DNA from: Candidatus Omnitrophota bacterium
Lineage (GTDB): Bacteria > Omnitrophota > Gorgyraeia > Zapsychrales > JANLHA01
Assembly (NCBI GenBank): GCA_963662715.1
Contig: OY759724.1
Location: 1,626,662 to 1,690,661 of the forward strand
Reading direction: 5' to 3'
Length of the DNA: 64,000 bases
The notes under the pieces are model-generated. The model did not search any database. It saw nothing but the letters and a program-made list of their open reading frames with translations, and was not told where the DNA came from. Positions 13,192-34,016 of this stretch are shown here, piece after piece (the first letter of the stretch is position 1; each line of letters starts with the position of its first letter). The translations under genes and the position numbers were made by a program.

Positions 13192-14169
13192 GTGCATTTT
13201 CACAAAAGGACAGGATCATTCATGAAAATCAAAGATACCCAGTTAGATATTATTCAAGGGGATATTACGGATCTCAATATCGGTGCCGTCGTTAACCCTT
13301 GCGGGCCTGACAGGGCCTTGGCGTCTCCCTTGGCGGGTCTTGTCCTGAAAAAAGATCCTTGCCGGAGAGAGGGGGGGGCTGCCCCCTCCCAGGTTTTGCC
13401 TGCCGGGGCAGTGATGTGCTTTCAAAATCAAGGACCGCAAATCCGTTACATTATCCATGCCGTAAAGGTCGATGATGAGGGGAAGACCGGAGAAAGGGTG
13501 TTGCGGCAAGTTTGCCGCAACGTGTTTCGATGTGTCCGGGAATTGGACGTTGATTCCTTGGCCTTTCTTCCTCTTGTGGAAAATCCGGAAGAGTTCCCTG
13601 TCTTAGGTGCCGCTAAAATTATGGCCCAGGAAATTTTAAAAGCTGTGCGTTATGAAAGCACCCTATTGCGGAAAATCGTGATTTGTCTGCCTGAGGCTGC
13701 GCTTTATGATGTTTATGTGAAGGAACTGACGAGTTATATGAATCATATCCTTTGTGATTTGGGGGCAGGCCCCTATGTGACCGTTGATATCATCATTGAA
13801 GTGCCGGAGGGCATTGTTGTCATAGAACGCTCCAATCCCCCTTATGGGTTGGCCTTGCCCGGAGGTTTTGTTGATCCGGGAGAGTCCCTTGAGCAGGCGG
13901 CATATCGTGAAGCTAAAGAGGAAACAGATTTGGACCTGGTTGATTTAAGGCAGTTTCATACTTATTCTGCTCCTCAGCGGGATCCGCGATTTCATACCGT
14001 CAGCACCGTTTTTGTAGCCCGGGGAGAAGGGGTCCCGCATTTCGGGGACGATGCCAAAGGGCTGCGGGTCATCCCGAGAGAAGAAATCCTCAAGTGTGAC
14101 TTTGCCTTTGATCATGGCATCATCCTTCGGGATTATTTGTCTGGAAGAAAACGGCAGAAAGGTTATTGA
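13192..14169 (+). CDS. Macro domain - NUDIX hydrolase fusion protein (putative ADP-ribose processing)
   Basis: N-terminus '[21 protein letters not shown]' is macro-domain-like. C-terminus '[30 protein letters not shown]' is a Nudix box. An alternative ATG is at 13222. Confidence 0.75.
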
Positions 14170-14171
14170 TT

Positions 14172-14282
14172 ATGGGAGAACAAAGCGCCCCCGGATTATC
14201 GAATGCGGTAGGAGGGCTTATCACCGTTGCGATTGTCGTGATTTTGTATGTTCTGATCCGCATTCTTCAGAAGAAGACCTGA
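14172..14282 (+). CDS. Possible 36-aa single-TM peptide (MGEQSAPGLSNAVGGLITVAIVVILYVLIRILQKKT)
   Basis: The ATG lies 3 nt after the Macro-Nudix stop. It has a hydrophobic helix and is followed by the hairpin at 14289-14317. It is below the ORF-track length cutoff, so this is my own translation. Confidence 0.3.
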   Translation: MGEQSAPGLSNAVGGLITVAIVVILYVLIRILQKKT

Positions 14283-14288
14283 CGGAAA

Positions 14289-14317
14289 ACAGTGAAGTTC
14301 TGCTTCACTGTCTTTCT
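14289..14317 (+). terminator. Hairpin ACAGTGAAG-ttctg-CTTCACTGT followed by CTTTCT
   Basis: Perfect 9-bp stem with a 5-nt loop, read directly. The downstream T-tract is short. Confidence 0.4.
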
Positions 14318-14524
14318 GCCGGTTCCTCCCTGGCCTCGTTTTTATTTTAAGGAAGGACACTGCTTTATCCTGCCAGAATATCCCGTGAAAATATTGAATA
14401 AAAACTAGCGTAAGGCCCACCTGAGGTTATAATTATTTTGAGTCGTTTATAGTGCTGGAGTTTATGTCTCATTTTTGTTTTGGCGGCAACTCCGCGGCAG
14501 AATGTCGCGCCCGTTTAGTGCGTG

Positions 14525-14573
14525 CCGGAGAAACGAGAAAGCGCTTTCTTGTTGCTCCGGGAGGCATTCTTTT
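14525..14573 (+). terminator. Long near-palindromic hairpin (CCGGAG...AGAAAGCGCTTTCT...CTCCGG) followed by a TTCTTTT tract
   Basis: An outer 6-bp stem plus the inner palindrome AGAAAGC|GCTTTCT gives ~17 bp in total. A U-tract lies 7 nt downstream. Confidence 0.4.
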
Positions 14574-14754
14574 GGAAAAAAGAGGGTATGGTTCCTTGCA
14601 GCTTTAAGTTTCTCGTCGATGCGTGTCAAGGAAGCGGGAAGAGAAGGCGTTTGAAAGATGGAATAAGGTAAGAAAAGTATTGTATACTTTTTATAGTAGG
14701 GCCTGACCACGATTTAATTATCGGGAACAAACTAACCGAGCAGGTAGGAGAATA

Positions 14755-15618
14755 ATGATGAAACACAAAAGAAAACTGTTTGCTGTTTTTGCGGGGGCCG
14801 TTTGTTGTCTGTTTCTTGCGGGCATGGTCTATGCCGGAACATTAACTTTAACGACATATTATCCCGCTCCTTTTGGTTCTTATTCCCAGGTGCGATTAGT
14901 GCCGCGGGCCGCCATATCAGGAGCCTGTGATGTGGGGAGTATGTACGTTGATGAAACAAACGGGTTATTAATGTATTGCCGTGATGATTCGACCTATGGC
15001 CTGTTGCCGACAGCCTGGACGCAGGACAGCAATTCTGTTTTCTTAACAGATGTGGCCAATTACAGCACTTTAAAAGTCGGGATCGGGACCATAAACCCTG
15101 ACAGCCAGCTGCAGATCGAATCCCAGGGAAGCGGCGCCACGTTTAAAGTCGATCAGATGGGAGGGAGCGCTTTTACCGTAAACAGCCAGTTAAGCAACTC
15201 GGTGATAGGAACGGAGGGGAACACGTCCCTGGAATTGAAGACAAATGGCACGTCCCGCATATACATTACATCAGCAGGCAAGGTGGGTATCAATTCCGCC
15301 AGCCCGACGCATGATTTGGAAATTAACGGGGATGTGGAAATTTCCGTTGAGGCCGGGGAGGACAGCCAGGTTACTTTTTCAAGGGGTACGACCTTTGTGA
15401 CGATGGGGCTCGATGCCGCAGATAATTATTTTAAGATAAATTACGGGTCCTCTTTGGGAGCCACGACAGAGCTGACATTGCTCCCGAGCGGTAAATTGCG
15501 CATTAACGGACCTATTGAAGTCAAACTCGGAAGTGATCCTGTTGGAGAAATAAAATTACGATATATTGATACGGGCGATCCCAACACATCGGGATATTAT
15601 GCCATGTACGCCCCTTAA
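14755..15618 (+). CDS. Secreted hypothetical protein, Gly/Ser/Thr-rich beta-type, with a single Cys pair
   Basis: Signal peptide 'MMKHKRKLFAVFAGAVCCLFLAGMVYA', then 'GTLTLTTYYPAPFGSY'. Strand-like G/S/T/N-rich composition. I recognise no family. Confidence 0.7.
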   Translation: MMKHKRKLFAVFAGAVCCLFLAGMVYAGTLTLTTYYPAPFGSYSQVRLVPRAAISGACDVGSMYVDETNGLLMYCRDDSTYGLLPTAWTQDSNSVFLTDVANYSTLKVGIGTINPDSQLQIESQGSGATFKVDQMGGSAFTVNSQLSNSVIGTEGNTSLELKTNGTSRIYITSAGKVGINSASPTHDLEINGDVEISVEAGEDSQVTFSRGTTFVTMGLDAADNYFKINYGSSLGATTELTLLPSGKLRINGPIEVKLGSDPVGEIKLRYIDTGDPNTSGYYAMYAP

Positions 15619-15649
15619 TCAACACGTTTAACAGGGAGATGAGAGAGAT

Positions 15650-18600
15650 ATGCTAAGTTACAGAAAGATTTGGCGTTTTTGCGCGATGGTTGTCTGTACG
15701 GTGTTTTTGGTCCTTCTGTCTGAATACGGCGCGTTTTCTCAAACTTGGACAGATGATGATCTGGCGACCGCCCAAAGACCGGTCAAGCCTATTCATATCC
15801 GGGAAATGCGGCGGGCTATTTATAACAAACGCATGCTCTGCGGGATGTCTTCTCCGACATGGCAGGAACCCAATATCATTGAAAAAGTGACGCCTATCCG
15901 GGCTCAGCATGTTGAAGAATTGCGGCAGGCGATCAGAGATGTTTATGACATGCCGCCGTCCCGTACTCTCCCTGACGGTGTGATATTGGCGACGGATGTC
16001 CCGGAGGAATCAGCTATCAGGGCCGATCATATTTTTGAAATAAGACTCTCTATCGAAGAGGTCAGTTGCTGCGGGGACGGGGAATGCAACCCGCCGTTTG
16101 AAGACCTGGATAACTGCCCGGTGGATTGCGGGGCCTGCACCTATAGCGACTGGGTGATTTTGGGTTGTGGCGTGTCTCCTTGCGATGGCAATGAAATTCA
16201 GCGCAAAAAAACGGCTCCGGAAGACGGCTGTCAGGATCTGATCGAATGTATTGCGGCTTATGACACATGCTGCAACTACGGGGCGTGGGAAGATTATGAC
16301 TGCGGCGGAGGCGAATGCGACCCGACAGCGATGAGGCAGATTCAGCAATCAGCCACCAGTGTGGCGGGCTGCGAGGACCGTTACCGCTGCCTGGAGCTTG
16401 AATCCTGCTGTGATTATGCGGGTTTTGTCTGGCAGTGCGGCTATGATATCCTTTATCCGGATACACAATGGCTGGAGGTTAACATCCCTGATAATTCCGC
16501 GTGTGAGCCAGAGTTCGGGACGATTTATGAAGCGGATGATCCCATATCAAAAGCAAACTGCTGCGATTACGGGGCGCAAAGCAGCAGCTGCGGCGGGGAA
16601 GTCGAAGGCGTGACCTATCCCGACTCCACCCTTATAACGCAACGCGCGGCGGGCAATCCCAATTGTGAAGATGATATCACCATCACTCCCAATGCCGATG
16701 ATTGTTGTGACTACGGACCGATTGAGACGCCTCCCAGCTGTGGGGCGACATTAAGGGTGGATGGAGTCATGACGACGTTCCCTGACACGACGTTCCTGCA
16801 GTTCCGGACACCGACAAATCCTAACTGTGATCATAAAATTGTCCAGGAACTCGCTATTGAAGAGGATCCGACAAAATACTGCTGTCAATACAGCGGTTTT
16901 CAGGGAGATTGCGGTTATGATCCCGTATACCCGGATACGGACTGGATCGAATATAATATCGCGGGAGTTGTCGACGTATCCTGTCCTGTGGAATACAGAA
17001 ATCATCTGCCGAATGCCGACAGCTGCTGCTGTTACGAATCGACCTCTATATGCGGAGACGGGGTCACCTACCCCACGTCCAGCATGATCACGTCGAAAAC
17101 TCCGACGTGTAATCCTTCCTGCTCGACCGAGGTAACAGAGGATACTTTTAATGAAGCCTGTTGCGGTTACGGGCCTTGGCAGTATGATCAGTGCGGATAT
17201 GCCGGATATTATGACGATACTTATCTGGTGGATTACCGTTCTCCGACCAATCCTCTGTGTGATCCTATCTTCGGTGATGTCTGCGGCCCGAATCATGAAG
17301 ACTGTTGCGGTTACCCGGAAAAAGATGTTGTCTGCGGAGGAACCTGGGAAGGGGTGGTTTATCCGGAGACCACCTGTATTTATGATGCCGCTAAACCGGC
17401 CAACCCGAATTGCCCGGATAAATGCGGTTCTATTGAAGAGATGTGCGATTATTGCTGTGATTATGAAATTACGAGTTCCCACTGCGGGGACGGGGTGACG
17501 ATCCCGGTCACCACTCAGGTTGTCACCAGGACGCCCAATAACCCGAACTGTGACGTGATCGTGGACGAACAGATCCCGGATGGCTGTTGCGGTTATCCGG
17601 CAGGGTCGAGCCGGATTTGCGGATACGACGGGCGCCCGGCAACGACATCCGTTGAAGTCATGGAACCGACCCAGGACTTTGATGATTGCGAAACGATTAT
17701 ACAGAATGAAATAGAGAACGATCCGTTCTGTTGTGATTATGCCGGGTTCCAGGCCTCGCAATGCGGGTATTCGGGGTGGTATGAGGCGCACACCCGGTTA
17801 GAGGTGAATGAGCCTAACAACGCCATAACAGGCTGTGATCCTCTGTTTCAGAACGTTGTTCCCTATGAGTATGAGTGCTGTGAATACGGGACCGCAACGT
17901 CGACCTGCGGGGACGGGGTAAGTTATCCGACGAGTTCCTGGGTGACGACGCAAACATCCGCCGCGGGGTGCGATGCTATCGAGGGAGAGGAGACGAATCA
18001 TCAAAACTGCTGCAATTATCCGGCCTCCCCGACCACGGAATGCGGGGCCTTGGGATATCCCGAGACTTATTTGGTTTCGTACCTGGAATCATCAACGAAT
18101 CCGACGTGTGAAATTCAGATTATCGGAACACCGGCTTATGACGAAGTGTGTTGCCAGTACGGATCTTTGCAGCAGGGGTGCGGGGACGGGGTCCAGTTCC
18201 CGTTGACAGACTATGTCAGCTGGCATGAGCCGGGGCTCGTGCACGTTGATTGCCCGGTTAAAGTTATCAGCCAGATCGAAAATGACGACACGTGTTGTGG
18301 GTATCCGGCGGAGTATACAGCCGTTTGTGGATATTCAGCCTTAGGCTATCCGGAAACAACATTAGTGGAGATTAAAGAGCCGACGCTGGCGGAATGTCCG
18401 GTGAAATCACGGAATCCGGTCCCTTATGACGACACATGCTGTGAATATACGACAAATTATTATTGCGGGTATCCGTCTCCTTTGGACATCCCGGACACCA
18501 ATTATGTTGAAGTGAAAGAACCGGGAGGAGGAAAAAGTTGCCCGGTAGAGGCTGTGAATGAAACAGCGTATGCTGAAATATGCTGCGGATACACGACCGG

Positions 18601-19450
18601 AACCGTTCAGGATTTGGGCTGCATGGCCTCATATGACGGTCTAACCTGTTCGTACGATCAACGATTGATTGTGACCACTCCGACGAACGCGAATTGTCCT
18701 GAAGAAAAAGAATGTAATTATGATGTGTCCTGTACAACATGTACGACCGGAGACACCCTGGCCTGCGCTGACGTAAACGGCTGTCCCTACCAGCGTATCT
18801 GCGAAGACGGTTACTGGAGCAGCTGTCAGCAGGTTAATCCTCTTTGCACTCCGGGAGAGATTGTTGATTGTGAGCCCAATGCCGACGGGTTTATTTCCAA
18901 AAAGACCTGTAATGTCTGCGGGACAGCCTGGGGACCCTGCTGGTGTGACCCGCAGGAAACACAAAGCTGTACAACCTCCGCTTCCTGCCCCGGGATCGGC
19001 ACATGTTCCGGAGGAGGCTGGTCTCCTTGCGAGCAAAGCAACCCGACATGTATTCCCGGCTCGACCCATGACTGTACTTTGGGCGACGGAAACCCGGGGG
19101 TCGAAGATTGTAATTCCTGCGGAGACGGCTTTGGTACGTGCCGCTGCTTGGCCGGCGCGGTTTATTGTTATATCGAAGGGGTTCTGGGAACCCAGACATG
19201 TAATACGACGACGGGGTTGTATGAGGATTGTGTCTGTATCAGCGGATCAACCAAGCAATGTACCACGACTTCGGGATGTACGGCCGGGGTTATTTATTGT
19301 AACGACGGCACCGGGCTCTTTGACGGCGACTGTGAATTGCCGTATTCTGAATGTACTCCGGGAGAAACCAGGTCTTGTCTGAAATACTTTATCATCCCTG
19401 GGACGGAGACATGTATGTCCTGCGGGAACTGGAGTGGTGTGTGTGAGTAA
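15650..19450 (+). CDS. Giant secreted hyper-cysteine-rich tandem-repeat protein (1266 aa; ~18 'CC-x-Y...CG...YP[DE]T...NP-x-C' modules plus C-terminal EGF-like modules)
   Basis: N-terminal signal/TM 'FCAMVVCTVFLVLLSEYGAFSQ'. Iterated motifs include CCDYG, CCGYP, CCEYG, CCNYP and CCQYG. 'C[TI]PG[ES]' modules appear at the C-terminus. The RBS-like GGGAGATGAGAGAG precedes the ATG. Confidence 0.85.
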   Translation: MLSYRKIWRFCAMVVCTVFLVLLSEYGAFSQTWTDDDLATAQRPVKPIHIREMRRAIYNKRMLCGMSSPTWQEPNIIEKVTPIRAQHVEELRQAIRDVYDMPPSRTLPDGVILATDVPEESAIRADHIFEIRLSIEEVSCCGDGECNPPFEDLDNCPVDCGACTYSDWVILGCGVSPCDGNEIQRKKTAPEDGCQDLIECIAAYDTCCNYGAWEDYDCGGGECDPTAMRQIQQSATSVAGCEDRYRCLELESCCDYAGFVWQCGYDILYPDTQWLEVNIPDNSACEPEFGTIYEADDPISKANCCDYGAQSSSCGGEVEGVTYPDSTLITQRAAGNPNCEDDITITPNADDCCDYGPIETPPSCGATLRVDGVMTTFPDTTFLQFRTPTNPNCDHKIVQELAIEEDPTKYCCQYSGFQGDCGYDPVYPDTDWIEYNIAGVVDVSCPVEYRNHLPNADSCCCYESTSICGDGVTYPTSSMITSKTPTCNPSCSTEVTEDTFNEACCGYGPWQYDQCGYAGYYDDTYLVDYRSPTNPLCDPIFGDVCGPNHEDCCGYPEKDVVCGGTWEGVVYPETTCIYDAAKPANPNCPDKCGSIEEMCDYCCDYEITSSHCGDGVTIPVTTQVVTRTPNNPNCDVIVDEQIPDGCCGYPAGSSRICGYDGRPATTSVEVMEPTQDFDDCETIIQNEIENDPFCCDYAGFQASQCGYSGWYEAHTRLEVNEPNNAITGCDPLFQNVVPYEYECCEYGTATSTCGDGVSYPTSSWVTTQTSAAGCDAIEGEETNHQNCCNYPASPTTECGALGYPETYLVSYLESSTNPTCEIQIIGTPAYDEVCCQYGSLQQGCGDGVQFPLTDYVSWHEPGLVHVDCPVKVISQIENDDTCCGYPAEYTAVCGYSALGYPETTLVEIKEPTLAECPVKSRNPVPYDDTCCEYTTNYYCGYPSPLDIPDTNYVEVKEPGGGKSCPVEAVNETAYAEICCGYTTGTVQDLGCMASYDGLTCSYDQRLIVTTPTNANCPEEKECNYDVSCTTCTTGDTLACADVNGCPYQRICEDGYWSSCQQVNPLCTPGEIVDCEPNADGFISKKTCNVCGTAWGPCWCDPQETQSCTTSASCPGIGTCSGGGWSPCEQSNPTCIPGSTHDCTLGDGNPGVEDCNSCGDGFGTCRCLAGAVYCYIEGVLGTQTCNTTTGLYEDCVCISGSTKQCTTTSGCTAGVIYCNDGTGLFDGDCELPYSECTPGETRSCLKYFIIPGTETCMSCGNWSGVCE

Positions 19451-19486
19451 CGCAGGTTAAAGAGAAGTTCTACATAAATAAACAAA

Positions 19487-19510
19487 AAGTCGGCGAATCC
19501 TGGCTGACTT
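19487..19510 (+). other. Imperfect hairpin AAGTCGGC-gaatcctg-GCTGACTT just after the Cys-rich gene
   Basis: 7/8 complementary arms with no clear T-tract. It may be a weak terminator or processing site. Confidence 0.2.
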
Positions 19511-19549
19511 CGTGTGTCTCCCTGTAATTTTCAGGTGGATTAGGTTGAC

Positions 19550-20167
19550 GTGTCTCAAGAACCAGAATCCCAGCTAAATCAGATTTATTCGGATCCGGAT
19601 GTTTTGCTTATGCTTGAGGTCCAGAAAGGCCACCAGGCCCCTTTTGAGAGCCTGATGCGTAAGTATTATAAACGGATTTATAATTTTATTTACCGTTTTG
19701 TCGGACATCGACAGCTGGCCGAAGATTTGACACAGGATGTTTTTATCCGTGTGTATAAATCGGCGGATTCTTACCATCCCAAAGCAAAATTTCAAACCTG
19801 GATTTATACTATTGCTAAGAATTTGAGTCTTAATGAATTAAGAAAAAAGAGCTCTCGAAACAGTATTTCTTTAGAACAAGAAATTCCGACTTCCCGTGGG
19901 GCCGTGCTGCCCCAGGTCGAAGACCCTCGTGCGAAGAGTCTCTGGGAATCCATGGCGCAGGAAGAAAAACAGTCTGTTGTCAGGGAGGCCATTCAGAGTC
20001 TTCCTGAGAATCAGAGGATGGCTGTTATTTTGCGGAGATACGAAGATCTTTCTTACGAACAGATTGCTCAGACACTCCAATGTTCCGTGCCTGCCGTTAA
20101 GTCTCTTTTGAATCGGGCTAAAGAAGGGCTGAAAGGGAAGCTCAGGAATGTTATGGGAGATTATTGA
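19550..20167 (+). CDS. RNA polymerase sigma-70 factor, ECF subfamily
   Basis: Region 2 'YKRIYNFIYRFVGHRQLAEDLTQDVFIRVYK' and region 4 'LPENQRMAVILRRYEDLSYEQIAQTLQCSVPAVKSLLNRAKEGL'. GTG start. Confidence 0.9.
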   Translation: MSQEPESQLNQIYSDPDVLLMLEVQKGHQAPFESLMRKYYKRIYNFIYRFVGHRQLAEDLTQDVFIRVYKSADSYHPKAKFQTWIYTIAKNLSLNELRKKSSRNSISLEQEIPTSRGAVLPQVEDPRAKSLWESMAQEEKQSVVREAIQSLPENQRMAVILRRYEDLSYEQIAQTLQCSVPAVKSLLNRAKEGLKGKLRNVMGDY

Positions 20168-20233
20168 CGCGAGACAAATAAATCGCAACTTTTCCGCTTT
20201 TTTTGTGTTAAATATATAGAAGAGGATTTTATT

Positions 20234-20722
20234 ATGAAATGTCATGAAATCAAAGAACTTCTCCCGGCCTACAGCAATTCTGATGTCTCTCCAGAAAAAG
20301 CTATGGAAATAGGAGAGCATTTAAAGGTCTGCGAGGATTGCCTGCAGGAATATAATCTTATTGTTAAGAGCTGGGAGTCTTTGGACGTCTGGCCGGATAT
20401 TGAGCCGGAAGAAGGATATGTTTCAAGGTTCTGGACGCGTTTGTCTGCAGAACAGACCTGGAGAGAACGGGTTATGAGCGGAATGAAGAACCTGCTTGCA
20501 AAAAGAGCTCTTGTCCCGGCCTATGCCGGAACGCTCGTTGCGGTCCTTGTTGCTTTCTTGTATTTTCAGGTCCCTTTATCAAAAAACCGGCCTCCTGAAA
20601 TGATCATTGAAGAGGATGTCGATTTTGTTGAATCTCTGGAATTGACAGAGCAAATGGATATATTGCAGGAGATGGATTGGTTAGAGGATTTGGATGTTAT
20701 CGAAAAACTTGATGCTGTTTAA
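20234..20722 (+). CDS. Anti-sigma factor, zf-HC2 (ChrR/RsrA-like zinc-binding) type with one TM helix
   Basis: 'MKCHEIKELLPAY...HLKVCEDC' is an H-x3-C-x2-C zinc motif. TM helix 'ALVPAYAGTLVAVLVAFLYF'. Acidic C-terminus 'EQMDILQEMDWLEDLDVIEKLD'. Confidence 0.85.
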   Translation: MKCHEIKELLPAYSNSDVSPEKAMEIGEHLKVCEDCLQEYNLIVKSWESLDVWPDIEPEEGYVSRFWTRLSAEQTWRERVMSGMKNLLAKRALVPAYAGTLVAVLVAFLYFQVPLSKNRPPEMIIEEDVDFVESLELTEQMDILQEMDWLEDLDVIEKLDAV

Positions 20723-21002
20723 TCAGCAAAACAATTTTGTGCTAAAAGGAAGGGCTATTTTTGTGCTGAGCCTCTGTGCTTTTATCTTTATGGGGGGCCG
20801 GAATGGAGATTGCGGGAAAGAACAACAGAAGGATTCTTTGAAAAAGAAAACACAAGATGAGTCTGTTGTCGAATATATGGATATTTTAGATATATTGGAA
20901 ATTCTGGATGAGCGGGACATTGATTTCTTTCAGGATGATTTTTTTAGTTATCAGGAATTCGAGGGAGAGAAGGATGGAAAGGACAAAACAAAAAAGAAGT
21001 AG
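20694..21002 (+). CDS. Small acidic protein with signal peptide-like N-terminus; shares an 'MDIL...L..D' motif with the anti-sigma C-terminus
   Basis: 'AIFVLSLCAFIFMGG' hydrophobic segment, then 'VVEYMDILDILEILDERDIDFFQDDFF' and a Lys-rich tail. It overlaps both neighbours by 29 nt in different frames. The true start is uncertain. Confidence 0.4.
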   Translation: MLSKNLMLFNQQNNFVLKGRAIFVLSLCAFIFMGGRNGDCGKEQQKDSLKKKTQDESVVEYMDILDILEILDERDIDFFQDDFFSYQEFEGEKDGKDKTKKK

Positions 21003-21531
21003 GTGTTTTTCGTGTGTTTTGTTTGTAATTCTGATTTGTTTTATCGGGCGTCCGGCGGCTGCTCAAACAACCGGGCAGGCCCGTGAAATCCGTGACGAAA
21101 AACGGTTGTCGGAAAAATTCGAAAGGTGGCAACAGCTCAGCGAAAAAGAGAAAGCCCTGTTGCGCCGGCGTTTTGAAAAATGGCAGGCGATGTCCCCTGC
21201 GCGGAAAGCAAGAATTCAGGAAAGGTTTAAACGGTTTAAATCCCTGCCTATAGAGAAACAGCAGGAGCTTCGGAAGAACTGGCGGCGCTTTATGAACATG
21301 ACCGAGGGGCAGAAAAGAGAAATCAATGCGCGTTATGCCCGATGGAAGAAAATGACTCCGGAAGAACGCAGAAGACTAAGAAACCGGTTTTACCGGTTTA
21401 TGCAGATGTCCCCGGAGGAACGCAGGCAGCTGCAGCAAAAAAGAGAGCGGTGGCAGTCTCTTTCTCCGGAAGAACGGCAGAGAATACGTCAAAGAATACT
21501 TGAAAAAAGAAGACAGGCCCAGGAAATGTAA
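20974..21531 (+). CDS. DUF3106-type periplasmic repeat protein ('SPEER' repeats) typical of ECF sigma / anti-sigma loci
   Basis: Signal peptide 'MERTKQKRSRCFSCVLFVILICFIGRPAAA'. At least 4 repeats '(M/L)(S/T)PEERxxLxxRxxRW/F'. Internal ATG at 20974. Confidence 0.75.
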   Translation: MERTKQKRSRCFSCVLFVILICFIGRPAAAQTTGQAREIRDEKRLSEKFERWQQLSEKEKALLRRRFEKWQAMSPARKARIQERFKRFKSLPIEKQQELRKNWRRFMNMTEGQKREINARYARWKKMTPEERRRLRNRFYRFMQMSPEERRQLQQKRERWQSLSPEERQRIRQRILEKRRQAQEM

Positions 21532-21540
21532 TCATCTTAA

Positions 21541-21600
21541 GGGATCAGCGCCCTTTTTTATAACTCAAATAGAACCAGGACGCTGATCCCTTTCATTTTT
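21541..21600 (+). terminator. Rho-independent terminator-like inverted repeat GGGATCAGCG ... CGCTGATCCC followed by TTTCATTTTT
   Basis: Perfect 10-bp arms at 21541-50 and 21581-90, a 30-nt loop, then a T-run. It ends the sigma / anti-sigma / DUF3106 block. Confidence 0.55.
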
Positions 21601-21751
21601 CTGAATTGTCGGCCTTTTTATTGTACCCTCCTTTTTAAATATCATCTTCCAATAATTTACAGCTTTTTAAAAATCCAAATAAGTTCTGGCCTCTTGTTGT
21701 CGTTCAGTTTTTTTCGCCCTCTTTTTCTTGCCTCTTGACAATGGTGTATTA

Positions 21752-21773
21752 CTGTATTACACTTGTAATACAG
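21752..21773. promoter_or_regulatory. Perfect palindrome CTGTATTACA-ct-TGTAATACAG (candidate GntR/YtrA operator) overlapping a TTGACA -35 box at 21735-21740
   Basis: Read directly. It has the GT-N-AC core typical of GntR operators. It sits 30 nt upstream of the GntR start and contains a further half-site copy 'gtattac' at 21745-21751. Confidence 0.55.
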
Positions 21774-21802
21774 GTAGCATCAAAACAAGAGTAAAGAAAG
21801 CC

Positions 21803-22207
21803 ATGACAGCCAAAGCAAAATTTTATTTTAATATTTTAACAACTTCCGGAGTCCCGATCTACCGGCAGATCATTGATCAGGTGAAAACTCTTATTGCGGC
21901 CGGCCGGTTGTCGTCAGGGGAGTTCCTGCCTTCTGTTCGTCAGGTGGCGCAGGAGCTGGAAATAAATCCTATGACGGTTTCCAAAGCCTATTCTTTATTA
22001 GAGAAGGAAGGAGTTCTGGAGTTTGCCCGCGGGCAGGGCATGAGAGTGAAGGGAAAAACTATTCCTCAAAAAGATCTGAAACAGCGGGAAGAGGCGCTTA
22101 TTCCTTTATTAAAAGAGGTCATTATGCGGGCTTGTCAATTGTCCGTTCAGCCGGAAAAGGTTATCTTACTTATGGAACATTTGTGGAAGGAGCAGCGTCA
22201 TGAATAA
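21803..22207 (+). CDS. GntR family transcriptional regulator, short YtrA-like subfamily
   Basis: 'IYRQIIDQVKTLIAAGRLSSGEFLPSVRQVAQELEINPMTVSKAYSLLEKEGVLEFARGQGMRV' is a GntR wHTH. The short C-terminal domain is followed by an ABC ATPase, as in YtrA-type operons. Confidence 0.85.
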   Translation: MTAKAKFYFNILTTSGVPIYRQIIDQVKTLIAAGRLSSGEFLPSVRQVAQELEINPMTVSKAYSLLEKEGVLEFARGQGMRVKGKTIPQKDLKQREEALIPLLKEVIMRACQLSVQPEKVILLMEHLWKEQRHE

Positions 22208-23078
22208 TTTTGTGATAAACATGCAGGGCGTTACAAGGCGTTATCGATCTAAAACGGTTTTGCAAAATTTGTCTTTGCGCGTTCCCGAAGGGTCGGTGTT
22301 TGGCCTGTTGGGGAAAAACGGGGCGGGGAAGACGACCCTCATTAAATGTGTTTTGGGTTTATTGCATCCTCATGAGGGCCAGATTTCGGTCCTGGAAGAT
22401 CATCCCGGGGATTTCTCGAATCAAACTAAAGAAAAGATCGGCTATGTCCCTCAGTCAGACCGGATTTATCCCTGGTTAAATGTCAGGCAGCTTGTTGCTT
22501 ATACGGCTTCGTTTTATTTTCACTGGAATACAGGTTTGGTTGAACGGTTGCTGAAAGAGTGGGAGTTGGATGAAGAGGATAAAGTGGGTTTGCTGTCAGA
22601 AGGCCAGGCCCAAAAACTGGCCATCATCCTTGCCTTAGGACATGAGCCGAGTGTATTGATATTTGACGAACCCGTTGCCAGCCTGGATCCTGCCGCCCGC
22701 AGGAATTTCTTAAAGACCATTCTGGATATTGTCGCTGACCGGAAATGCACGATATTTTTCTCCACCCATATCACCTCAGACCTTGAACGGGTCGCCGACC
22801 GTGTCGCTTTGCTGAAAGACGGAAAAATTGATTTTTGCGGTGAGCTTGACGTGTTAAAAGAAGAAGTCAAAAGACTGCGGGTGGTGTCTTCTGTCCCGTT
22901 GTCCCGGGAATTCCAGCTTGACGGCCTTCTTCACTGTGAACTGTCAAAGTATGAGGCTATTTTGTCTGTGCGCGGCTTTCATCCGGATCTGAAAAACCAG
23001 ATAGAGAAAAAAATCGGAGCGAAAATAGAAGTCGAGGATCTGAATCTTGAAGAAATTTTTCTGGAGCTCCATTCATGA
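22200..23078 (+). CDS. ABC transporter ATP-binding protein
   Basis: Walker A 'GKNGAGKTTL', signature 'LSEGQAQKL', Walker B 'LIFDEP', H-loop 'THI'. Confidence 0.9.
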   Translation: MNNFVINMQGVTRRYRSKTVLQNLSLRVPEGSVFGLLGKNGAGKTTLIKCVLGLLHPHEGQISVLEDHPGDFSNQTKEKIGYVPQSDRIYPWLNVRQLVAYTASFYFHWNTGLVERLLKEWELDEEDKVGLLSEGQAQKLAIILALGHEPSVLIFDEPVASLDPAARRNFLKTILDIVADRKCTIFFSTHITSDLERVADRVALLKDGKIDFCGELDVLKEEVKRLRVVSSVPLSREFQLDGLLHCELSKYEAILSVRGFHPDLKNQIEKKIGAKIEVEDLNLEEIFLELHS

Positions 23079-24463
23079 GAAATAAATATTATCAGATTTT
23101 CAACCTTTATTATCAATACATCCCTTTCCGTATCTTGTCGGCGTGTTTAGTGGCCACAGCTTTGCTTTCAAGATTTTCCCTTAAGCAGAAATACTATTAT
23201 GTCGCCGATGATTTTTTCACCTTTTTTCTGGTTGTCAGTGTCTGGCTGGGTTTCACTTCCGGGGTGTTATTAAAGAGACAGATGGCGCATCCCCGGGCCG
23301 CACTGCTGCCGGATTACCGTATCCCCCATATCATTGTCCCTTATAGTTTTTTTGCCTTCTTTATCGCGGTTTACTGTTATTGGCTCAGCAGCCTTTACCC
23401 GCTTATTATCCTGGAGAAAGCAGCTGTGTGGTCGGTTTTTCTGTTAAGTGTTCTTATCATCAACCTGATTATCTGGGTCGGATATCTGTCCATTAGTTTG
23501 CTGGTCTATGTCTCGTATTTTCTTCTGCTCGTGATTTCCTGGCAGACGTTTAACCTGGTTATCCTCATTACCGAACAGGCGCATTGGCAGCTTGCCCTGG
23601 CTCTGGCGAGTGTGGCTTTGCTTCTGCTGCTCGCTTGGCGAATGACGGTCTTAAATGAGGACAAGTTTGAATACGGCTATATTATTTCCTGGCCGCATAA
23701 GGAATTCCTCCACAATCAAATCAAAGCCGGAGAACTTTATGTCCGGGCGATACATTTTATTAAAAGCCGGCTCGGGCTTAAGCCCCGCAGAGTTGCCGTT
23801 CCTCCTTATCCGAGAGAGGCGGCCCTTTGGCGGAGGGCGTACCATTGGCATTATTTGGATTTGGCTGAATTGAAAAGTATTTGGATTCTGCTTGTGGTTT
23901 TGACGCCGGTCTATGTTTACCGCATCCCTGGGATGTCTTTTTTTCATGACTTTTACAGGGATCCTTACAGTAATTTTTTGCTTTATGCCATTGCCCCTGT
24001 CCTGATCGTTTTATGCTCGAATTATCGTAACATGAGCACCTGGCCGCATGATCTTCTGAAACCGGTCCGAAAAAAAGACTTTATTAAAGAGCAGGGGGCG
24101 GGACTTTTGGCGGGGCTGGGGCTGTACTGGCTGTTGTTTGTGATGTACTTGGTCTTTATCCCGCATTGCGTGCTTCAACCCGCTGCCTTGTTGAGCAGCC
24201 GGTTCTGGGGATATTTGGCTTTGTCAGGAAGTTTTGCCTTCTTGACATTGTCCTGGGTCATTTTTATGAGCACTTATTCATCCCGGCCCTGGTTTGTCCT
24301 GGCTAACGGAAGCGTTCTTGTGGGGCTGGCGCAGTTGTTGTTTGTGGTGGCCGGGAAACAGCCTTTCATGATCAATATGTTGAATAGTGCTCTGTGTTGG
24401 GTAGGCATTTATTTATTTTTGAAATGGGGTTACCGGAAATGGTGTCAGGCTGAGACAGCCTAG
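23075..24463 (+). CDS. Polytopic integral membrane protein (putative permease partner of the ABC ATPase)
   Basis: 462 aa with >=10 hydrophobic helices. 4-nt overlap with the ATPase gene. No recognisable family motif. Confidence 0.6.
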   Translation: MRNKYYQIFNLYYQYIPFRILSACLVATALLSRFSLKQKYYYVADDFFTFFLVVSVWLGFTSGVLLKRQMAHPRAALLPDYRIPHIIVPYSFFAFFIAVYCYWLSSLYPLIILEKAAVWSVFLLSVLIINLIIWVGYLSISLLVYVSYFLLLVISWQTFNLVILITEQAHWQLALALASVALLLLLAWRMTVLNEDKFEYGYIISWPHKEFLHNQIKAGELYVRAIHFIKSRLGLKPRRVAVPPYPREAALWRRAYHWHYLDLAELKSIWILLVVLTPVYVYRIPGMSFFHDFYRDPYSNFLLYAIAPVLIVLCSNYRNMSTWPHDLLKPVRKKDFIKEQGAGLLAGLGLYWLLFVMYLVFIPHCVLQPAALLSSRFWGYLALSGSFAFLTLSWVIFMSTYSSRPWFVLANGSVLVGLAQLLFVVAGKQPFMINMLNSALCWVGIYLFLKWGYRKWCQAETA

Positions 24464-24474: not shown

Positions 24475-25917
24475 ATGAAAGTCAAAATGATTTTACCCGC
24501 GTTGTCTGAAGCCAAGAGTATATACTGGCGGCCTTTGAAATATTCTTTGTTCCCGCCTTTGGGTTTAGCGACTTTAGCCGGTTTTCTTTCCGCTGAGGAT
24601 GATATCGAAATCCGGGATGAACATGTTGAAGATTTATTCCTGGATGACGATCCTGACCTCGTTGCGATCCAGGTTTATATTACAGCCGCCCACCGGGCTT
24701 ATGAAATAGCCGATCATTACTGCCGGAAAGGCGTTTACGTTGTTTTAGGCGGTTTACACGTAACCTCTCTGCCGCAGGAAGCCGCTCTTCATGCCGACAC
24801 GATTTTTTTAGGTCCGGGCGAAGATACCTGGCCGCAATTTTTGCATGATTTTAGGCATGCGCGTCCCCGCAAAATTTACTCATCAACCCATCGTTCCCTG
24901 ACCGGCATCCCGCCTTTGCGGCGGGATCTTATTAAACGGCATTTGTATCTGGTGCCTAATTCTTTGCTTGTGTCCCGGGGCTGCCCGCACAGATGTGATT
25001 TTTGTTATAAAGAATCTTTTTTCCAGGGGGGCAGATCTTTTTATACCCAGACGGTCGATGATGCGCTTCATGAGATCCGCCGTCTCCCGGGGAAGCATCT
25101 TTTTTTTCTTGATGACCATCTCTTCGCTGATGAACGCTTTGCCTTGTCGTTGTTTGACGGAATGAAAGGAATGAAACGGGTCTGGCAGGCTGCCGGGACA
25201 GTGGCTTCCGTATTAAGGCCTCGTTTAATTGAGAAAGCCGTTGATTGCGGATTGAAAAGCCTGTTTGTCGGGTTTGAAAGCGTTAGGTCGGATACCCTCG
25301 CGGCATACAATAAACAGCATAACAGCAGAAGCGATTATGATGATGCCATCAGAAAGCTGCATGATTTGGGTGTCATGATCAACGGGAGTTTTGTCTTTGG
25401 CTGGGATGAGGACGGCCCGGATGTTTTTGACCGGACGGTCGAATGGGCCATAAGTCACGGGATTGAAACAGCTACCTTTCATGTCCTGACGCCGTATCCC
25501 GGAACCGCGCTTTTTAAACGCTTATTATTTCAGAAACGTCTGCTAAAAAAGAATTGGGACCTGTATGATACCCGGCATGCGGTCTTTGCTCCGGCACAAA
25601 TGTCGGCTGAAGATTTGGAGAAAGGATATGGGAGGGCGTATCGTGATTTTTATAAGTGGGGATCAATCTTTCAGGGGGCGGGGAATCATGCCTCAGGAAA
25701 AGATGCTTTGCGGCACCTGGCTTATGCCGGGGCCTGGAAAAAGTGTGAGCCATTATGGAATTTTATTATCAAGATTCGGCAGATTCAGAAAATGCGTCCT
25801 TTCCTGGAAGCGGTCCTTTCCGGGGGGCGGCGGGAGGAAGGGCGGATTCTTCCCGCCGTAAAAGACAGGGGGGTGCTGCAAAAGGAACGGATGTCATTTA
25901 AAACCGCCGGACCGTGA
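24475..25917 (+). CDS. B12-binding domain / radical SAM protein
   Basis: The N-terminal B12-binding-like domain is followed by 'CPHRCDFCYK', a CxxxCxxC radical SAM cluster motif. Confidence 0.85.
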   Translation: MKVKMILPALSEAKSIYWRPLKYSLFPPLGLATLAGFLSAEDDIEIRDEHVEDLFLDDDPDLVAIQVYITAAHRAYEIADHYCRKGVYVVLGGLHVTSLPQEAALHADTIFLGPGEDTWPQFLHDFRHARPRKIYSSTHRSLTGIPPLRRDLIKRHLYLVPNSLLVSRGCPHRCDFCYKESFFQGGRSFYTQTVDDALHEIRRLPGKHLFFLDDHLFADERFALSLFDGMKGMKRVWQAAGTVASVLRPRLIEKAVDCGLKSLFVGFESVRSDTLAAYNKQHNSRSDYDDAIRKLHDLGVMINGSFVFGWDEDGPDVFDRTVEWAISHGIETATFHVLTPYPGTALFKRLLFQKRLLKKNWDLYDTRHAVFAPAQMSAEDLEKGYGRAYRDFYKWGSIFQGAGNHASGKDALRHLAYAGAWKKCEPLWNFIIKIRQIQKMRPFLEAVLSGGRREEGRILPAVKDRGVLQKERMSFKTAGP

Positions 25918-27229: not shown

Positions 27230-28024
27230 ATGAAATCAAATTTGTCTCATAACGTATTGAAATTGACTCTTCTGTTTTCGGGCGTCTCTACTTTGGGCCT
27301 GTTTATAGCCATGGCGATACATGAATTGGGTCATATCATTGTTGTCCTTTATTACGGGGGGCGGGTGACAAATCTTCATTTGCAGCCGTTTTCCCGTTCT
27401 GTCGTATCGTATTCCGTCCCGGCATCAGCGTCACAGTTATGGATCGCCTCCGGGGGCATTGTTTTCAGCATGATCATGGGCGGACTCGCTTTTTTGCTCG
27501 CACGTAAAATACGGTCTCCATACGGGTTGCCGGTCATTATGACAGGAGTCGCGGCTTTCATCGGGAATGGTTTTTATTTTGTTTTTGGTGCAATCATGTA
27601 CGGCGGCTTCGGTGATCCGGCAAAGTTAATGGCTTCGGGGTGCCCGGCCTATGGCCTTGTGATTTGGGGCGGTGTCCTTTTTATTCTTGGCTGCCTAGCT
27701 TTCCTTGCGAATCTTCCTTTGCTCGGGATCGGTCCGGAAGATTCCTGGGGACGAAGATCTGTCATCTTTGCCGGAGGTATTGCGCCTTATTTGATATGCG
27801 TGATGGTTTATAACGCTGTTTTTGATGAGACGCGCATTCCGCATTATTTTACTTTTATTGTTGGAACTATTTTTATGCTGTTGGCCGGGGCTTTTATGAC
27901 CAGGTTTTTGTCTGAGCGTTTGAGATGGCTCCAAAGACCTGCTGTAAGAGTTTGTTGGAAGCATGCATGGTTTGCTGTATACTTAAGTGTGCTTGTGATT
28001 ACGATAGAGCTGGTTTCTTTTTAG
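27230..28024 (+). CDS. Membrane protein with intramembrane HExxH motif (putative M50/S2P-like or DUF3267-like zinc metalloprotease)
   Basis: 'LFIAMAIHELGHIIVVLYYGG' places HELGH inside a TM helix. 6-7 TM segments. Confidence 0.55.
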   Translation: MKSNLSHNVLKLTLLFSGVSTLGLFIAMAIHELGHIIVVLYYGGRVTNLHLQPFSRSVVSYSVPASASQLWIASGGIVFSMIMGGLAFLLARKIRSPYGLPVIMTGVAAFIGNGFYFVFGAIMYGGFGDPAKLMASGCPAYGLVIWGGVLFILGCLAFLANLPLLGIGPEDSWGRRSVIFAGGIAPYLICVMVYNAVFDETRIPHYFTFIVGTIFMLLAGAFMTRFLSERLRWLQRPAVRVCWKHAWFAVYLSVLVITIELVSF

Positions 28025-28106: not shown

Positions 28107-28817
28107 ATGCAGATTTTATTTTCATTTTTTCTGGCCGTATTGCCGGCTTTGCTTTTAGTCCGGTATTTTTACAAAGCTAATCCGGCCCCCAAAGCCCTGA
28201 TCATTAAGCTGTTTCTTCTGGGGATTATATATACTCTTCCGGTTTATATTTTAGAAGAGATTTTGGCCCGCTTTAATGTGTATACGGAAGGCTCTTTTAT
28301 CCTGTATTATTTTTTTGAAGCCTTTATCGTTGCCGGGCTGTGCGAAGAATACATCAAGTTAAGAGTCGTTAAGAAATACGGATATAATTCCCCGTATCTG
28401 CAGGGAGAAGGCGACGGGATCATCCTTACTGTTGTGGCCAGTATGGGTTTTGCCTGTATGGAAAATATTTTGTATGTTATCAATAATTCCTGGTATATGG
28501 CTTTAGCCCGGGGGTTTACGGCGGTTCCCATGCATGCGATTTGTTCCGGAGTCATGGGATATTATCTGGGGCTCGCCAAACGCGCCCGGATAGCCCAAGA
28601 ACCGCAGACAGAAAAATATCTTATTAATAAAGGATTATGGCAGGCCATTTTAATCCACGGGTTATATGACTTTTTCTTGTTCATTTCTCCTATCCTGGGT
28701 TCAGTTTTTGCGACATTCACCGTTCCCCTTATGCTTTGGTATTATTTTTCCTTGAAAAGAACAATTCATAATGCTGTAGAGGATAGACTGCGGTTTTTTA
28801 AGGAGGGACAGGCATGA
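28107..28817 (+). CDS. CPBP/PrsW-family intramembrane glutamic-type metalloprotease (CAAX-protease-like)
   Basis: Motif 1 'CEEYIKL' (EExxK), motif 2 'GFACMENIL' (FxxxE), motif 3 'IHGLYDFF' (HxxxD). Confidence 0.75.
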   Translation: MQILFSFFLAVLPALLLVRYFYKANPAPKALIIKLFLLGIIYTLPVYILEEILARFNVYTEGSFILYYFFEAFIVAGLCEEYIKLRVVKKYGYNSPYLQGEGDGIILTVVASMGFACMENILYVINNSWYMALARGFTAVPMHAICSGVMGYYLGLAKRARIAQEPQTEKYLINKGLWQAILIHGLYDFFLFISPILGSVFATFTVPLMLWYYFSLKRTIHNAVEDRLRFFKEGQA

Positions 28818-32320: not shown

Positions 32321-33091
32321 ATGAACAGATTATTTTTAATCCGCAAAATCATGTTCGTCGGATTTTGTCTGACGTTTTTGCTGGGTTTCTCGGATATTAA
32401 ATTGCAGGATATCGAAACAGCTGTGATTGAAAAAGATTATGAAACGGCCAGGAATCTTGCCCAGACATTCCTCGCCTCCAATCCCGGCCGCGCCCAGAAG
32501 AATGAAGCTTCTTATTATCTGGGGTTAAGTGAATTGTTTTTGGGTGAGCCGGAGAAAGCCAGACAGATATTTGTGAAGATTATTGAAAGTGACCCGGATG
32601 CCCCGCTGAAGGGGAAAGCCTATATCGGCGAAGTTGACGCTTACTTTTTTCTGGAGAAGTACGAGGTCGCTTTGCATAAAGCAGAGGCTTTGCTGAATAA
32701 ACGGGCGGGCCGGGGATTCTCGGGGTTAATCTATCTGAAAATGGCCCGTGCCCATCTGAAGCTTGGCCGTTGGGACGAGGCCCGGAAGTATTTAAATAAA
32801 ATTATCTCTTATGCCCCGGACAGTGTGGAAGCTCACCGGGCAAGGCAGCTTCTCCAGGAGCGGCAGTTTTTTTCCGTGCAGTGCGGTTCCTTCCTGCACC
32901 GTTCTCATGCCGAGAATCTGGTGGAAGAATTGAAAGGCCGGGGGGAATATGCCTATATCGTTGAGACCGTCGATAAAGACGGTACGGGATTTTACCGGGT
33001 GCGGGTCGGTCAATTGTCAACCCTTATTGAGGCCAAAAATTTAAAAAAGAAATTAGCTGATTTAGGTTATCCTGCCTTGATTTATCCTTAG
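32321..33091 (+). CDS. TPR-repeat protein with C-terminal SPOR (peptidoglycan-binding) domain
   Basis: N-terminal TM/signal, then TPR-like helices. The C-terminus 'FSVQCGSFLHRSHAENLVEELKGRGEYAYIVETVDKDGTGFYRVRVGQLSTLIEAKNLKKKLADLGYPALIY' is a SPOR fold signature. Confidence 0.75.
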   Translation: MNRLFLIRKIMFVGFCLTFLLGFSDIKLQDIETAVIEKDYETARNLAQTFLASNPGRAQKNEASYYLGLSELFLGEPEKARQIFVKIIESDPDAPLKGKAYIGEVDAYFFLEKYEVALHKAEALLNKRAGRGFSGLIYLKMARAHLKLGRWDEARKYLNKIISYAPDSVEAHRARQLLQERQFFSVQCGSFLHRSHAENLVEELKGRGEYAYIVETVDKDGTGFYRVRVGQLSTLIEAKNLKKKLADLGYPALIYP

Positions 33092-33092
33092 T

Positions 33093-34016
33093 ATGCATCA
33101 TAATAAAATTATTTTCATCGTCGGCCCGACAGCCGTCGGCAAAACAGAAGTGGCTTTTCGTTTGGCTCAGCAGATGCAGGCGGAAATTGTTTCCTGTGAC
33201 GCTATGCAGGTTTATCGGGAGGTTTCCATCGCCACGAACACCCCTTTGCCGGAGATGCTCCGCTCCGTGCCGCATCATTGTGTTCATGTTGTTGAGCCTT
33301 CCCGGGAATTTGATGTCGCGGCGTATAACGATATGGCGCTGCAGGCTGTCCGGGATATCTTTCAAAGACAGAAGACAGTGGTGATCACTGGCGGCAGCGG
33401 ATTGTATATGCAGGTTTTGCTGGACGGCATTTTTCAGGGAGCGCCCAAAGAACGCTATATCAGGGATGAGTTGTGGCAGAGATTTGAAGCAGAAGGCCGT
33501 GAAGCGCTTATCCGTGAATTAAAGGCCCGGGATCCCATGGCCGCTCAACGCATTCATCCTCATGATACCCGGAGGATTATCCGGGCCCTGGAGGTCTGTT
33601 TGGCGACGGATCAGCCTTTTTCCAAGCTGCAAAAGGAACGGCAAGGGCTTTGGGGAAAATATGAGATAAGTCTTTATGCCTTGACGCGGGAGCGGGAGGA
33701 CTTATATGATCGGATTAACCGGAGGGTTGATCAGATGTTTGAGCAAGGGCTTATGGAGGAGATCGGCCGTCTCCGGCAAAGGTCTTTGAGCCTTACGGCT
33801 CGGCGCATTATCGGTTTCAGGGAGGTTTCGGGGTGTTTGGATCATGAATATGATGAAAGCCGGGCCCGGTATCTTATGAAACTGCATACCCGGCATTATG
33901 CCAAAAGGCAGCTGACCTGGTTTAGAAAAGACAATCGTATTCAATGGATTTTCCTGCGGCGGGATGCGGGGGCGGCAGAGCCGCTGGCGGCCCTTGCCAA
34001 AGCGGAACATTTGTGA
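33093..34016 (+). CDS. miaA: tRNA dimethylallyltransferase (MiaA)
   Basis: P-loop 'IVGPTAVGKTEVAFRLA...EIVSCDAMQVYR'. Confidence 0.9.
   Translation: MHHNKIIFIVGPTAVGKTEVAFRLAQQMQAEIVSCDAMQVYREVSIATNTPLPEMLRSVPHHCVHVVEPSREFDVAAYNDMALQAVRDIFQRQKTVVITGGSGLYMQVLLDGIFQGAPKERYIRDELWQRFEAEGREALIRELKARDPMAAQRIHPHDTRRIIRALEVCLATDQPFSKLQKERQGLWGKYEISLYALTREREDLYDRINRRVDQMFEQGLMEEIGRLRQRSLSLTARRIIGFREVSGCLDHEYDESRARYLMKLHTRHYAKRQLTWFRKDNRIQWIFLRRDAGAAEPLAALAKAEHL

Follow-up and report, generated by a model that had tools for sequence, protein, structure and literature searches.

In a 64,000-nucleotide (nt) window of DNA from a Candidatus Omnitrophota bacterium (GenBank assembly GCA_963662715.1, contig OY759724.1, positions 1,626,662 to 1,690,661 of the forward strand), we interpret positions 19550-21531 as a self-contained signalling cassette of four genes built around an extracytoplasmic function (ECF) sigma factor. 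The other three genes code for a single-pass anti-sigma factor with a zinc finger and an acidic outer tail, a small acidic protein similar in sequence to that tail, and a basic repeat protein of the DUF3106 family. The gene immediately upstream codes for a very large cysteine-rich (Cys-rich) protein, which we call the giant. We put the probability of this interpretation at about 0.6, taking it as a whole, with the mechanism that we propose and the relationship to the giant included. ECF sigma/anti-sigma pairs are a well-known kind of signalling system. The cassette is real and not a chance arrangement of reading frames, because its domains have strong E-values and the same gene order is found on more than 30 unrelated contigs.

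A recurring unit found in many bacterial phyla

A scan for DUF3106 loci with an alignment of three sequences, using one genome per species, yielded 23 loci–in Desulfobacterales, Gamma- and Zetaproteobacteria, Nitrospirota, Bdellovibrionota, Acidobacteriota, Nitrospina, and Omnitrophota–and a 12-sequence alignment was too diverse for this use. A metagenome scan with the sigma factor gave 65 more loci, and exact protein look-ups supplied further ones. We translated all open reading frames (ORFs) and searched them with the window proteins. By these searches we found a DUF3106 relative in 38 loci. Loci, with or without DUF3106, are designated here by L numbers where they have to be told apart.

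An ECF sigma factor gene is located directly upstream of the DUF3106 gene, on the same strand, in 29 of the 31 DUF3106 loci that have at least 1.8 kb of upstream sequence, and a single-pass anti-sigma factor is nearly always encoded between the two. Similarly, all seven loci whose sigma factor is at least 52% identical to that of the window, and for which enough downstream DNA is available (L034-L037 and L040-L042), have all three of the anti-sigma, acidic, and DUF3106 genes. The set is repeated as a unit in many phyla, covering at least seven phylum-level groups. A preliminary description of this DNA, made from its letters alone, had called the sigma/anti-sigma/DUF3106 triad an established envelope-stress arrangement. 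The linkage stands at 29 of 31 loci, but 'established' says too much: in the literature searched we found no paper that discusses the function of DUF3106 (the name turns up only in two papers on Helitrons, and PF11304 nowhere), and DUF3106 is not named in the main text of the paper that reclassified ECF sigma factors (PMC7826278). We infer, rather than observe, a role for the cassette in envelope stress.

Six loci with more divergent sigma factors (28-47% identity; L063, L074, L076, L084, L094, and L086) have an anti-sigma factor that lacks the acidic tail, and they have no DUF3106 gene. The zinc finger is present in the anti-sigma factors of the first five of these and absent in L086. In all six, the anti-sigma gene is followed by a gene for a CpxP/Spy-like protein of the Metal_resist/LTXXQ type (the four that were scanned have Pfam E-values of 1e-12 to 1e-14). 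The acidic tail and DUF3106 co-vary. In some of the six Metal_resist-type loci, a membrane permease-like gene comes next.

The sigma factor and the anti-sigma factor

The sigma factor is a two-domain protein of the RpoE/AlgU/SigW-like type. Its 205 aa (amino acids) contain only regions sigma2 and sigma4 (Pfam Sigma70_r2, E = 2e-20; Sigma70_r4_2, E = 2e-17), with no region 3, and it scores 117.5 bits against the ECF model TIGR02937, which has a cutoff of 42.9. A public gene call, P0042, has exactly the same 205-aa product. The gene is adjoined by that of the presumed cognate anti-sigma factor, a pairing that is kept in relatives, as is the N-terminal 'SDPDVxLML' of the protein. Among the NCBIfam models, it is above the generic ECF cutoff and below the cutoff of every named equivalog, including RpoE and SigW. 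The closest relatives with solved structures are 6in7_B (a 'sigma-H factor', E = 2e-27), RpoE (1or7, E = 2e-26), and SigW (5wuq).

The N-terminal domain of the anti-sigma factor is a zf-HC2 zinc finger (ZAS-type, class I) with the motif H29-x3-C33-x2-C36, matching PF13490 with an E-value of 5.7e-7 (29.9 bits; cutoff 22.2). It is followed by a single hydrophobic, presumably transmembrane, segment at about residues 91-116 and then by an outer tail of 49 residues with a net charge of -13, which consists of repeats of the type LExxDhI. A profile made from the tails at other loci matches the window protein with an E-value of 8.6e-10. The acidity of the tail is general: in all 27 DUF3106 loci with an anti-sigma factor recognised by the anti-sigma profile, the C-terminal 35 residues of that protein have a net charge between -4 and -15. 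The zinc finger is found in most groups and is absent from the gamma-, zeta-, and Bdellovibrio-type variants, which keep the acidic tail and DUF3106. There are also weak, sub-threshold matches to LED_rpt (PF20854; E = 2e-4 to 0.03, with scores well short of the 59-bit cutoff) in residues 127-158 of the window anti-sigma factor, in the tails of its relatives, and in several small acidic proteins.

The small acidic protein and the DUF3106 protein

The third gene of the cassette is a short ORF whose product, 102 aa at its longest, has a pI of 4.8 overall and a net charge of only -4. Its core (residues 56-92, VVEYMDILDILEILDERDIDFFQDDFF) has a charge of -13 and resembles the anti-sigma tail. The start codon is uncertain (20694, 20712, or 20739), and the protein matches no Pfam or NCBIfam family. 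These two properties, together with the lack of an acidic gene in L100, would fit an ORF that is simply a chance overlapping frame between the anti-sigma and DUF3106 genes. We consider that explanation extremely improbable, because an 81-aa called gene in L098 is 54% identical to the window ORF over its 81 aa, and at least 17 loci from several phyla have an equivalent ORF at the same position. These ORFs make up a family of proteins of 58-100 aa, each combining a signal peptide with an acidic core (for example, 'SDEDxEVIxNLEILExLxFLEEDL'). A profile of the family matches the 102-aa ORF with an E-value of 1.4e-3. On the identity to the L098 gene and the recurrence of the family, we take the ORF to be a real gene. 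The same small-protein profile also matches anti-sigma factors (best E = 7.6e-6), and a profile made from the tails only matches the small acidic proteins in return (best E = 1.7e-9), with neither profile having any unrelated match among 5848 ORFs. By sequence comparison, then, the small acidic protein resembles the acidic outer tail of the anti-sigma factor.

The last gene codes for a member of the DUF3106 family (PF11304, E = 1e-25, 90.6 bits; cutoff 24.3). The protein begins with a hydrophobic, signal-like segment. Its mature part has a net charge of +26, and the pI of the whole protein is 11.5. We found seven 18-residue basic repeats in it, with the pattern [ML][ST]PE[EQ][RK]..L..R..R[WF]. 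An AlphaFold2 model (mean predicted local distance difference test score, pLDDT, of 87) has a signal helix followed by eight helices of about 15 residues each, so the protein is predicted to be an all-helical repeat protein. The mature protein in the window contains no cysteine or histidine and is hence without typical metal ligands.

Layout and boundaries of the cassette

The four genes are ORFs on the plus strand in the ORF list (Table 1). The sigma gene starts 99 nt after the stop codon of the giant, and the anti-sigma gene begins 66 nt downstream of the sigma gene. The anti-sigma, acidic, and DUF3106 genes are in three different frames and, with the start codons given in Table 1, are joined by two overlaps of 29 nt. 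Most of this was anticipated in the preliminary description, which had an ECF sigma gene about 100 nt after the giant (borne out by Pfam and TIGR02937), a zinc-binding H-x3-C-x2-C anti-sigma factor with a single membrane pass, a 102-aa acidic protein, and 29-nt overlaps in different frames. Its assignment of the last gene to DUF3106 is correct, and its count of at least four SPEER repeats holds only for a degenerate form of the motif; [ST]PEE[RK] occurs in three repeats and SPEER itself in only two.

Table 1. Features of the cassette and its immediate context (window coordinates; aa, amino acids).
Feature	Position	Strand	Details and evidence
ECF (group 4) sigma factor	19550..20167	+	205 aa, GTG start; Pfam r2 and r4_2, TIGR02937
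Single-pass zf-HC2 anti-sigma factor	20234..20722	+	162 aa; Pfam zf-HC2, hydropathy, charge
Small exported acidic protein	20694..21002	+	102 aa as longest ORF; counterpart in L098, profile match
DUF3106 protein	20974..21531	+	185 aa (207 aa from 20908); Pfam PF11304
Hairpin in the spacer between giant and sigma genes	19487..19510	+	8-bp stem, no T-run; RNA fold
Terminator-like hairpin and T-run closing the cassette	21539..21563	+	Terminator scan
Exported protein, upstream of the cassette	14755..15618	+	287 aa; pair with the giant conserved in L004-L009 and L100
Cys-rich giant, upstream of the cassette	15650..19450	+	1266 aa; pair with the 287-aa protein conserved in L004-L009 and L100

On the downstream side the unit is bounded by the terminator after the DUF3106 gene (positions 21539-21550 can alternatively pair with 21581-21592 in a long hairpin), beyond which a GntR gene has a promoter of its own. 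On the upstream side, the region 19445-19560 has a predicted fold of -32.5 kcal/mol (z = -2.5), and its hairpin at 19487-19510 was not called by the terminator scan. An Rfam scan of 14000-22300 found no credible RNA family. We also considered whether base composition indicates horizontal acquisition of the cassette, and dropped the idea: its GC content (0.438, against 0.479 for the window) is uninformative, because the neighbouring GntR gene is equally low at 0.438 and the proteins are rich in lysine and glutamate.

A possible extracytoplasmic switch

We propose that the products of the cassette could work together in the following way. The cytoplasmic zinc-finger domain of the anti-sigma factor would hold the sigma factor at the membrane, and the acidic outer tail would be the regulated element of the anti-sigma factor. 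The basic DUF3106 protein would bind this tail electrostatically and control either its conformation or its exposure to proteolysis, which would give it the operon position and the role that RseB/MucB has for RseA/MucA, or that the CpxP/Spy-like protein may have in the sister cassettes. The free acidic protein would be a decoy that competes for DUF3106 and, with both helper proteins encoded in the sigma operon, there would be feedback on signalling. In its most specific form, which we regard as rather unlikely, the proposal is that the acidic tail, its secreted look-alike, and DUF3106 make up an extracytoplasmic partner-switching circuit based on mimicry: DUF3106 would clamp the tail and keep the sigma factor off, until the decoy, or polyanionic or polycationic cues from the envelope, titrated DUF3106 away and left the tail exposed to proteolysis. 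If this were true, the circuit would parallel, in the periplasm, the mimicry of the cytoplasmic PhyR-NepR-EcfG system, and would be a widespread mode of ECF control that takes the place of the CpxP/Spy-like partner of ECF281-type systems.

Several observations weigh against our interpretation. The interaction between DUF3106 and the tail is suggested only by opposite charge, co-occurrence, and gene position. A Foldseek search of the PDB with the DUF3106 model gave no match at E < 1, and DUF3106 has no significant similarity to the CpxP/Spy families (LTXXQ, PF07813, E = 2.2; Metal_resist, PF13801, E = 6.3), so the comparison with CpxP or RseB is limited to an analogy of function. Some cassettes (L100, L021, L017, and L023) have no small acidic gene; a decoy therefore cannot be essential, and could only be a modulator. 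We found no ECF-type autoregulatory promoter (AAC-N16/17-CGT or GAAC-type) in 19300-19560. Finally, the distance from the stop codon of the giant to the GTG of the sigma gene is 20 nt in L100 and 16 nt in L098, which is compatible with a real functional coupling of the giant and the cassette.

A different possibility is a cassette that responds to metals or to the thiol-redox state, with either the HxxxCxxC motif working as a redox switch like that of RsrA or DUF3106 working as a periplasmic metal sensor, as has been proposed for the heavy-metal-resistance proteins of ECF281-type systems. The zf-HC2 motif is present, the RsrA model has a weak match to the window anti-sigma factor (E = 6e-4, far below its cutoff), and proteins of the 'heavy-metal resistance' family PF13801 are encoded at the equivalent position in the six loci with 28-47% sigma identity. 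We nevertheless consider metal or redox sensing improbable. Many variants from Gammaproteobacteria, Zetaproteobacteria, and Bdellovibrionota have no HxxxCxxC motif and still keep the tail and DUF3106, which indicates that the zinc finger is not the conserved sensory part. The absence of cysteine and histidine from the mature DUF3106 protein, and the lack of significant similarity between DUF3106 and PF13801, also speak against it.

Relationship of the cassette to the giant

The 287-aa exported protein and the giant match no Pfam or NCBIfam family. They are encoded by a gene pair that is kept in Candidatus Omnitrophota (L004-L009 and L100), with a giant of about 1200 aa; in L005-L008 there is a DsbA/Thioredoxin_4 gene about 3 kb from the giant. 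The order giant-then-cassette is found in the window, in L100 (sigma factor 66% identical), and in L098/L099 (83% identical), the last two of which begin with the final 20 nt of the giant gene. The gene order of L100 agrees with that of the window throughout: it has genes for a CCA enzyme, a macro/Nudix protein, a 286-aa protein, a 1268-aa giant (77% identity), the sigma factor (66%), the anti-sigma factor (43%), and DUF3106 (45%), followed by GntR and ABC genes and onward. At 16-20 nt, the spacers of L098 and L100 leave no room for a terminator and a promoter, so in these two loci the sigma gene is either co-transcribed with the giant or has its promoter inside the coding sequence of the giant. 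The window spacer has about 82 nt with no counterpart in L098 or L100, and these hold the hairpin without a T-run. From these sequences it is plausible in this Omnitrophota lineage, and probable at least in L098 and L100, that the cassette is co-transcribed with the 287-aa/giant pair.

In other genomes the two are separate. L004, also from Omnitrophota, has a giant that is 76% identical to that of the window and 82.5% identical to that of L100. It aligns with window positions 15367-19450 and then with 21705-24453, so that the whole 2.25-kb cassette is gone from between the giant and the GntR-ABC genes. More distant homologs of the giant, with about 33% identity (L005-L009), keep the pair of giant and 283-aa protein and have no sigma or DUF3106 gene within the approximately 4-10 kb that was fetched on each side. 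Conversely, there is no giant near the other cassettes that we checked (about 33 loci, with DNA of up to 10 kb a side), including those of the Omnitrophota loci L021 and L101. Proximity to the giant is confined to one lineage, can be dispensed with, and does not define the cassette family.

In pairwise comparisons of four proteins, L100 and L004 are closest to each other (80-87% identity) and the window is further out (61-77%). Because of this branching, the simplest history, and the one that we favour on these sequences, is that the L004 lineage lost the cassette. From L004 we had considered that the cassette was simply inserted beside the giant, an idea that was dropped after L100 and L098 showed the same adjacency. 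In L004, positions 4090-4102, directly after the stop codon of the giant, read GTTGATGTGATCC, resembling the GGTTGACGTGTCTC found around the sigma start in the window and in L098. The GTTGATGTG at this place may be a remnant of that start context, a scar of the deletion of the cassette, although the similarity is suggestive only. A second insertion/deletion difference in the neighbourhood involves a gene for a B12-binding radical SAM protein (24475-25917), which is present in the window and L100 and is not at the same place in L004.

Going further back, other Omnitrophota and related loci (7697-12968 of L101, and L034-L036) have a Cys_Met_Meta_PP gene ahead of the cassette. After the cassette, L101 has SPOR/TPR and miaA genes, and in the window the same pair is found about 11 kb further downstream (32321-34016). 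These neighbourhoods suggest that the cassette has long been in this chromosomal region and that the giant came to lie beside it later.

The preliminary description tied the sigma module to the giant, and this claim fared unevenly. The adjacency is shared with L100 and L098/L099, where it is even tighter, whereas L004 and L005-L009 are without the cassette and other cassettes are without the giant; the same is true of its expectation that the neighbourhood would be present in related genomes. In this view, the cassette would be functionally tied to the 287-aa/giant pair and co-transcribed with it, and would sense the load that the giant places on export and oxidative folding, or the giant would belong to the sigma regulon. 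The conserved gene order in the window, L100, and L098/L099, the short spacers in L100 and L098, and the hairpin without a T-run in the window spacer are on the side of such a tie. Under roughly clock-like divergence, moreover, the cassette is ancestral at this site, and so the adjacency has persisted. Against it are L004, which keeps the giant and the GntR-ABC genes without the cassette, the absence of the cassette from the DNA fetched around the L005-L009 giants, and the absence of the giant from about 33 other cassette loci. Nor do the promoters point this way. The preliminary description proposed looking for an ECF-type promoter upstream of 14755 and 15650; we found no AAC-N16/17-CGT and no GAAC-type motif upstream of 14755, 15650, or 19550, a weak negative, as the consensus may not be that of this clade. 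The only block upstream of 14755 that is shared with L100 (14389-14442, AAAATATTGAAT...CTAG...GGTTATAATTATTT) carries a sigma-70-type -10 element, TATAAT, 329 nt before the ATG of the 287-aa gene. All told, we consider a functional tie to the giant possible though doubtful. A dedicated relation of sensing or control between the cassette and the giant is unproven, and gene adjacency in one narrow lineage is no ground for taking the window cassette to be a regulator dedicated to the giant. Our interpretation remains that of a self-contained cassette.

Promoter searches and downstream genes

The AAC-N16/17-CGT pattern is a loose one, with 17 chance occurrences on the plus strand of the window. 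An enumeration of bipartite motifs in 18 sigma upstream regions gave a weak TTTC-N15-18-AAT, seen in 8 of the 18 (null maximum 6) and not in the window, and nothing usable. Outside the block shared with L100, the long leader of the 287-aa gene shows no conservation, and it matches no Rfam family. Of the sigma-70-like promoters in the region, the best is TTGACA-17-TACACT at 21735-21763, upstream of the GntR gene, which codes for a PmtR-like regulator and is followed by genes for an ABC ATPase and a 462-aa membrane protein. A palindrome, TGTATTAC...GTAATACA, overlaps this promoter (21735-21775) and is kept in L004 and L100; judging from its sequence and position, it is probably the operator of the GntR regulator.

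Comparison with known systems

In the sigmaE and AlgU systems, an exported partner protein binds the outer domain of the anti-sigma factor and gates its proteolysis. The window cassette is like the sigmaE-RseA-RseB-RseC system of E. coli and the AlgU-MucA-MucB system of P. aeruginosa in that its sigma factor is most similar to theirs among solved structures (6in7_B and 1or7), and in that the sigma gene is followed immediately by one for a single-pass anti-sigma factor and then by one for an exported protein. However, it is not an RpoE-RseABC operon: the sigma factor scores 126 bits against TIGR02939, which has a cutoff of 236, and none of the three downstream proteins matches the RseA, RseB, or RseC families. 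The anti-sigma factor has a zf-HC2 domain and a 49-aa acidic repeat where RseA has a folded periplasmic domain, and the partner is a basic protein with a helical repeat structure, accompanied by an additional acidic protein.

The sigmaW-RsiW system of B. subtilis, which uses the proteases PrsW and RasP, is similar in other respects. The window sigma factor has some of its best matches in the SigW models and the SigW structure, and RsiW is the best solved match of the anti-sigma factor, although a weak one (E = 0.05); both are zinc-finger proteins with a single membrane pass. The SigW equivalog models are nevertheless far below cutoff for the window protein (131.6 bits, against 209), and RsiW has neither the acidic repeat tail nor a DUF3106 or acidic partner. 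In other bacteria, proteases of the PrsW and M50 families make the site-1 and site-2 cleavages of zinc-finger anti-sigma factors. A gene for a PrsW-family intramembrane protease (28107-28817, E = 3e-31) is located 6.6 kb downstream of the cassette and is also present in L004, which has no cassette. It is adjoined by a gene for a weakly M50-like protein (27230-28024), and both positions are occupied in L004 too.

ECF281 (original group ECF20) has a zinc-finger anti-sigma factor at position +1 and a heavy-metal resistance protein, PF13801, at position +2 (Casas-Pastor et al. 2021, PMC7826278). The window cassette shares with it the sigma factor, the zinc-finger anti-sigma factor at +1, and an exported helical protein further downstream. 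It differs in having the acidic protein and DUF3106 at +2 and +3, where ECF281 has a PF13801 protein of the Metal_resist/LTXXQ type at +2 and an anti-sigma factor without an acidic tail. By gene layout, the six loci with 28-47% sigma identity fit the ECF281 arrangement.

The likeness to CpxP and CpxA is only in the proposed logic, in which a basic helical periplasmic protein, encoded within the regulon, would dock on an acidic sensory segment. CpxP is a basic periplasmic inhibitor that acts on the acidic sensor domain of CpxA. The L[ST]PE[EQ][RK] repeat of DUF3106 superficially resembles the LTXXQ motif, but this resemblance failed in the tests of sequence and fold, and the output of CpxP-CpxA is a two-component system whereas that of the window cassette is an ECF sigma factor.

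To our knowledge, sensing of signals by the outer parts of anti-sigma factors is understood for only a few groups. Set beside the systems above, the output module of the window cassette is ordinary, and its extracytoplasmic input module is the new part: an outer anatomy of acidic tail, tail-like putative decoy, and basic repeat protein, for which the model of binding and competition is directly testable.

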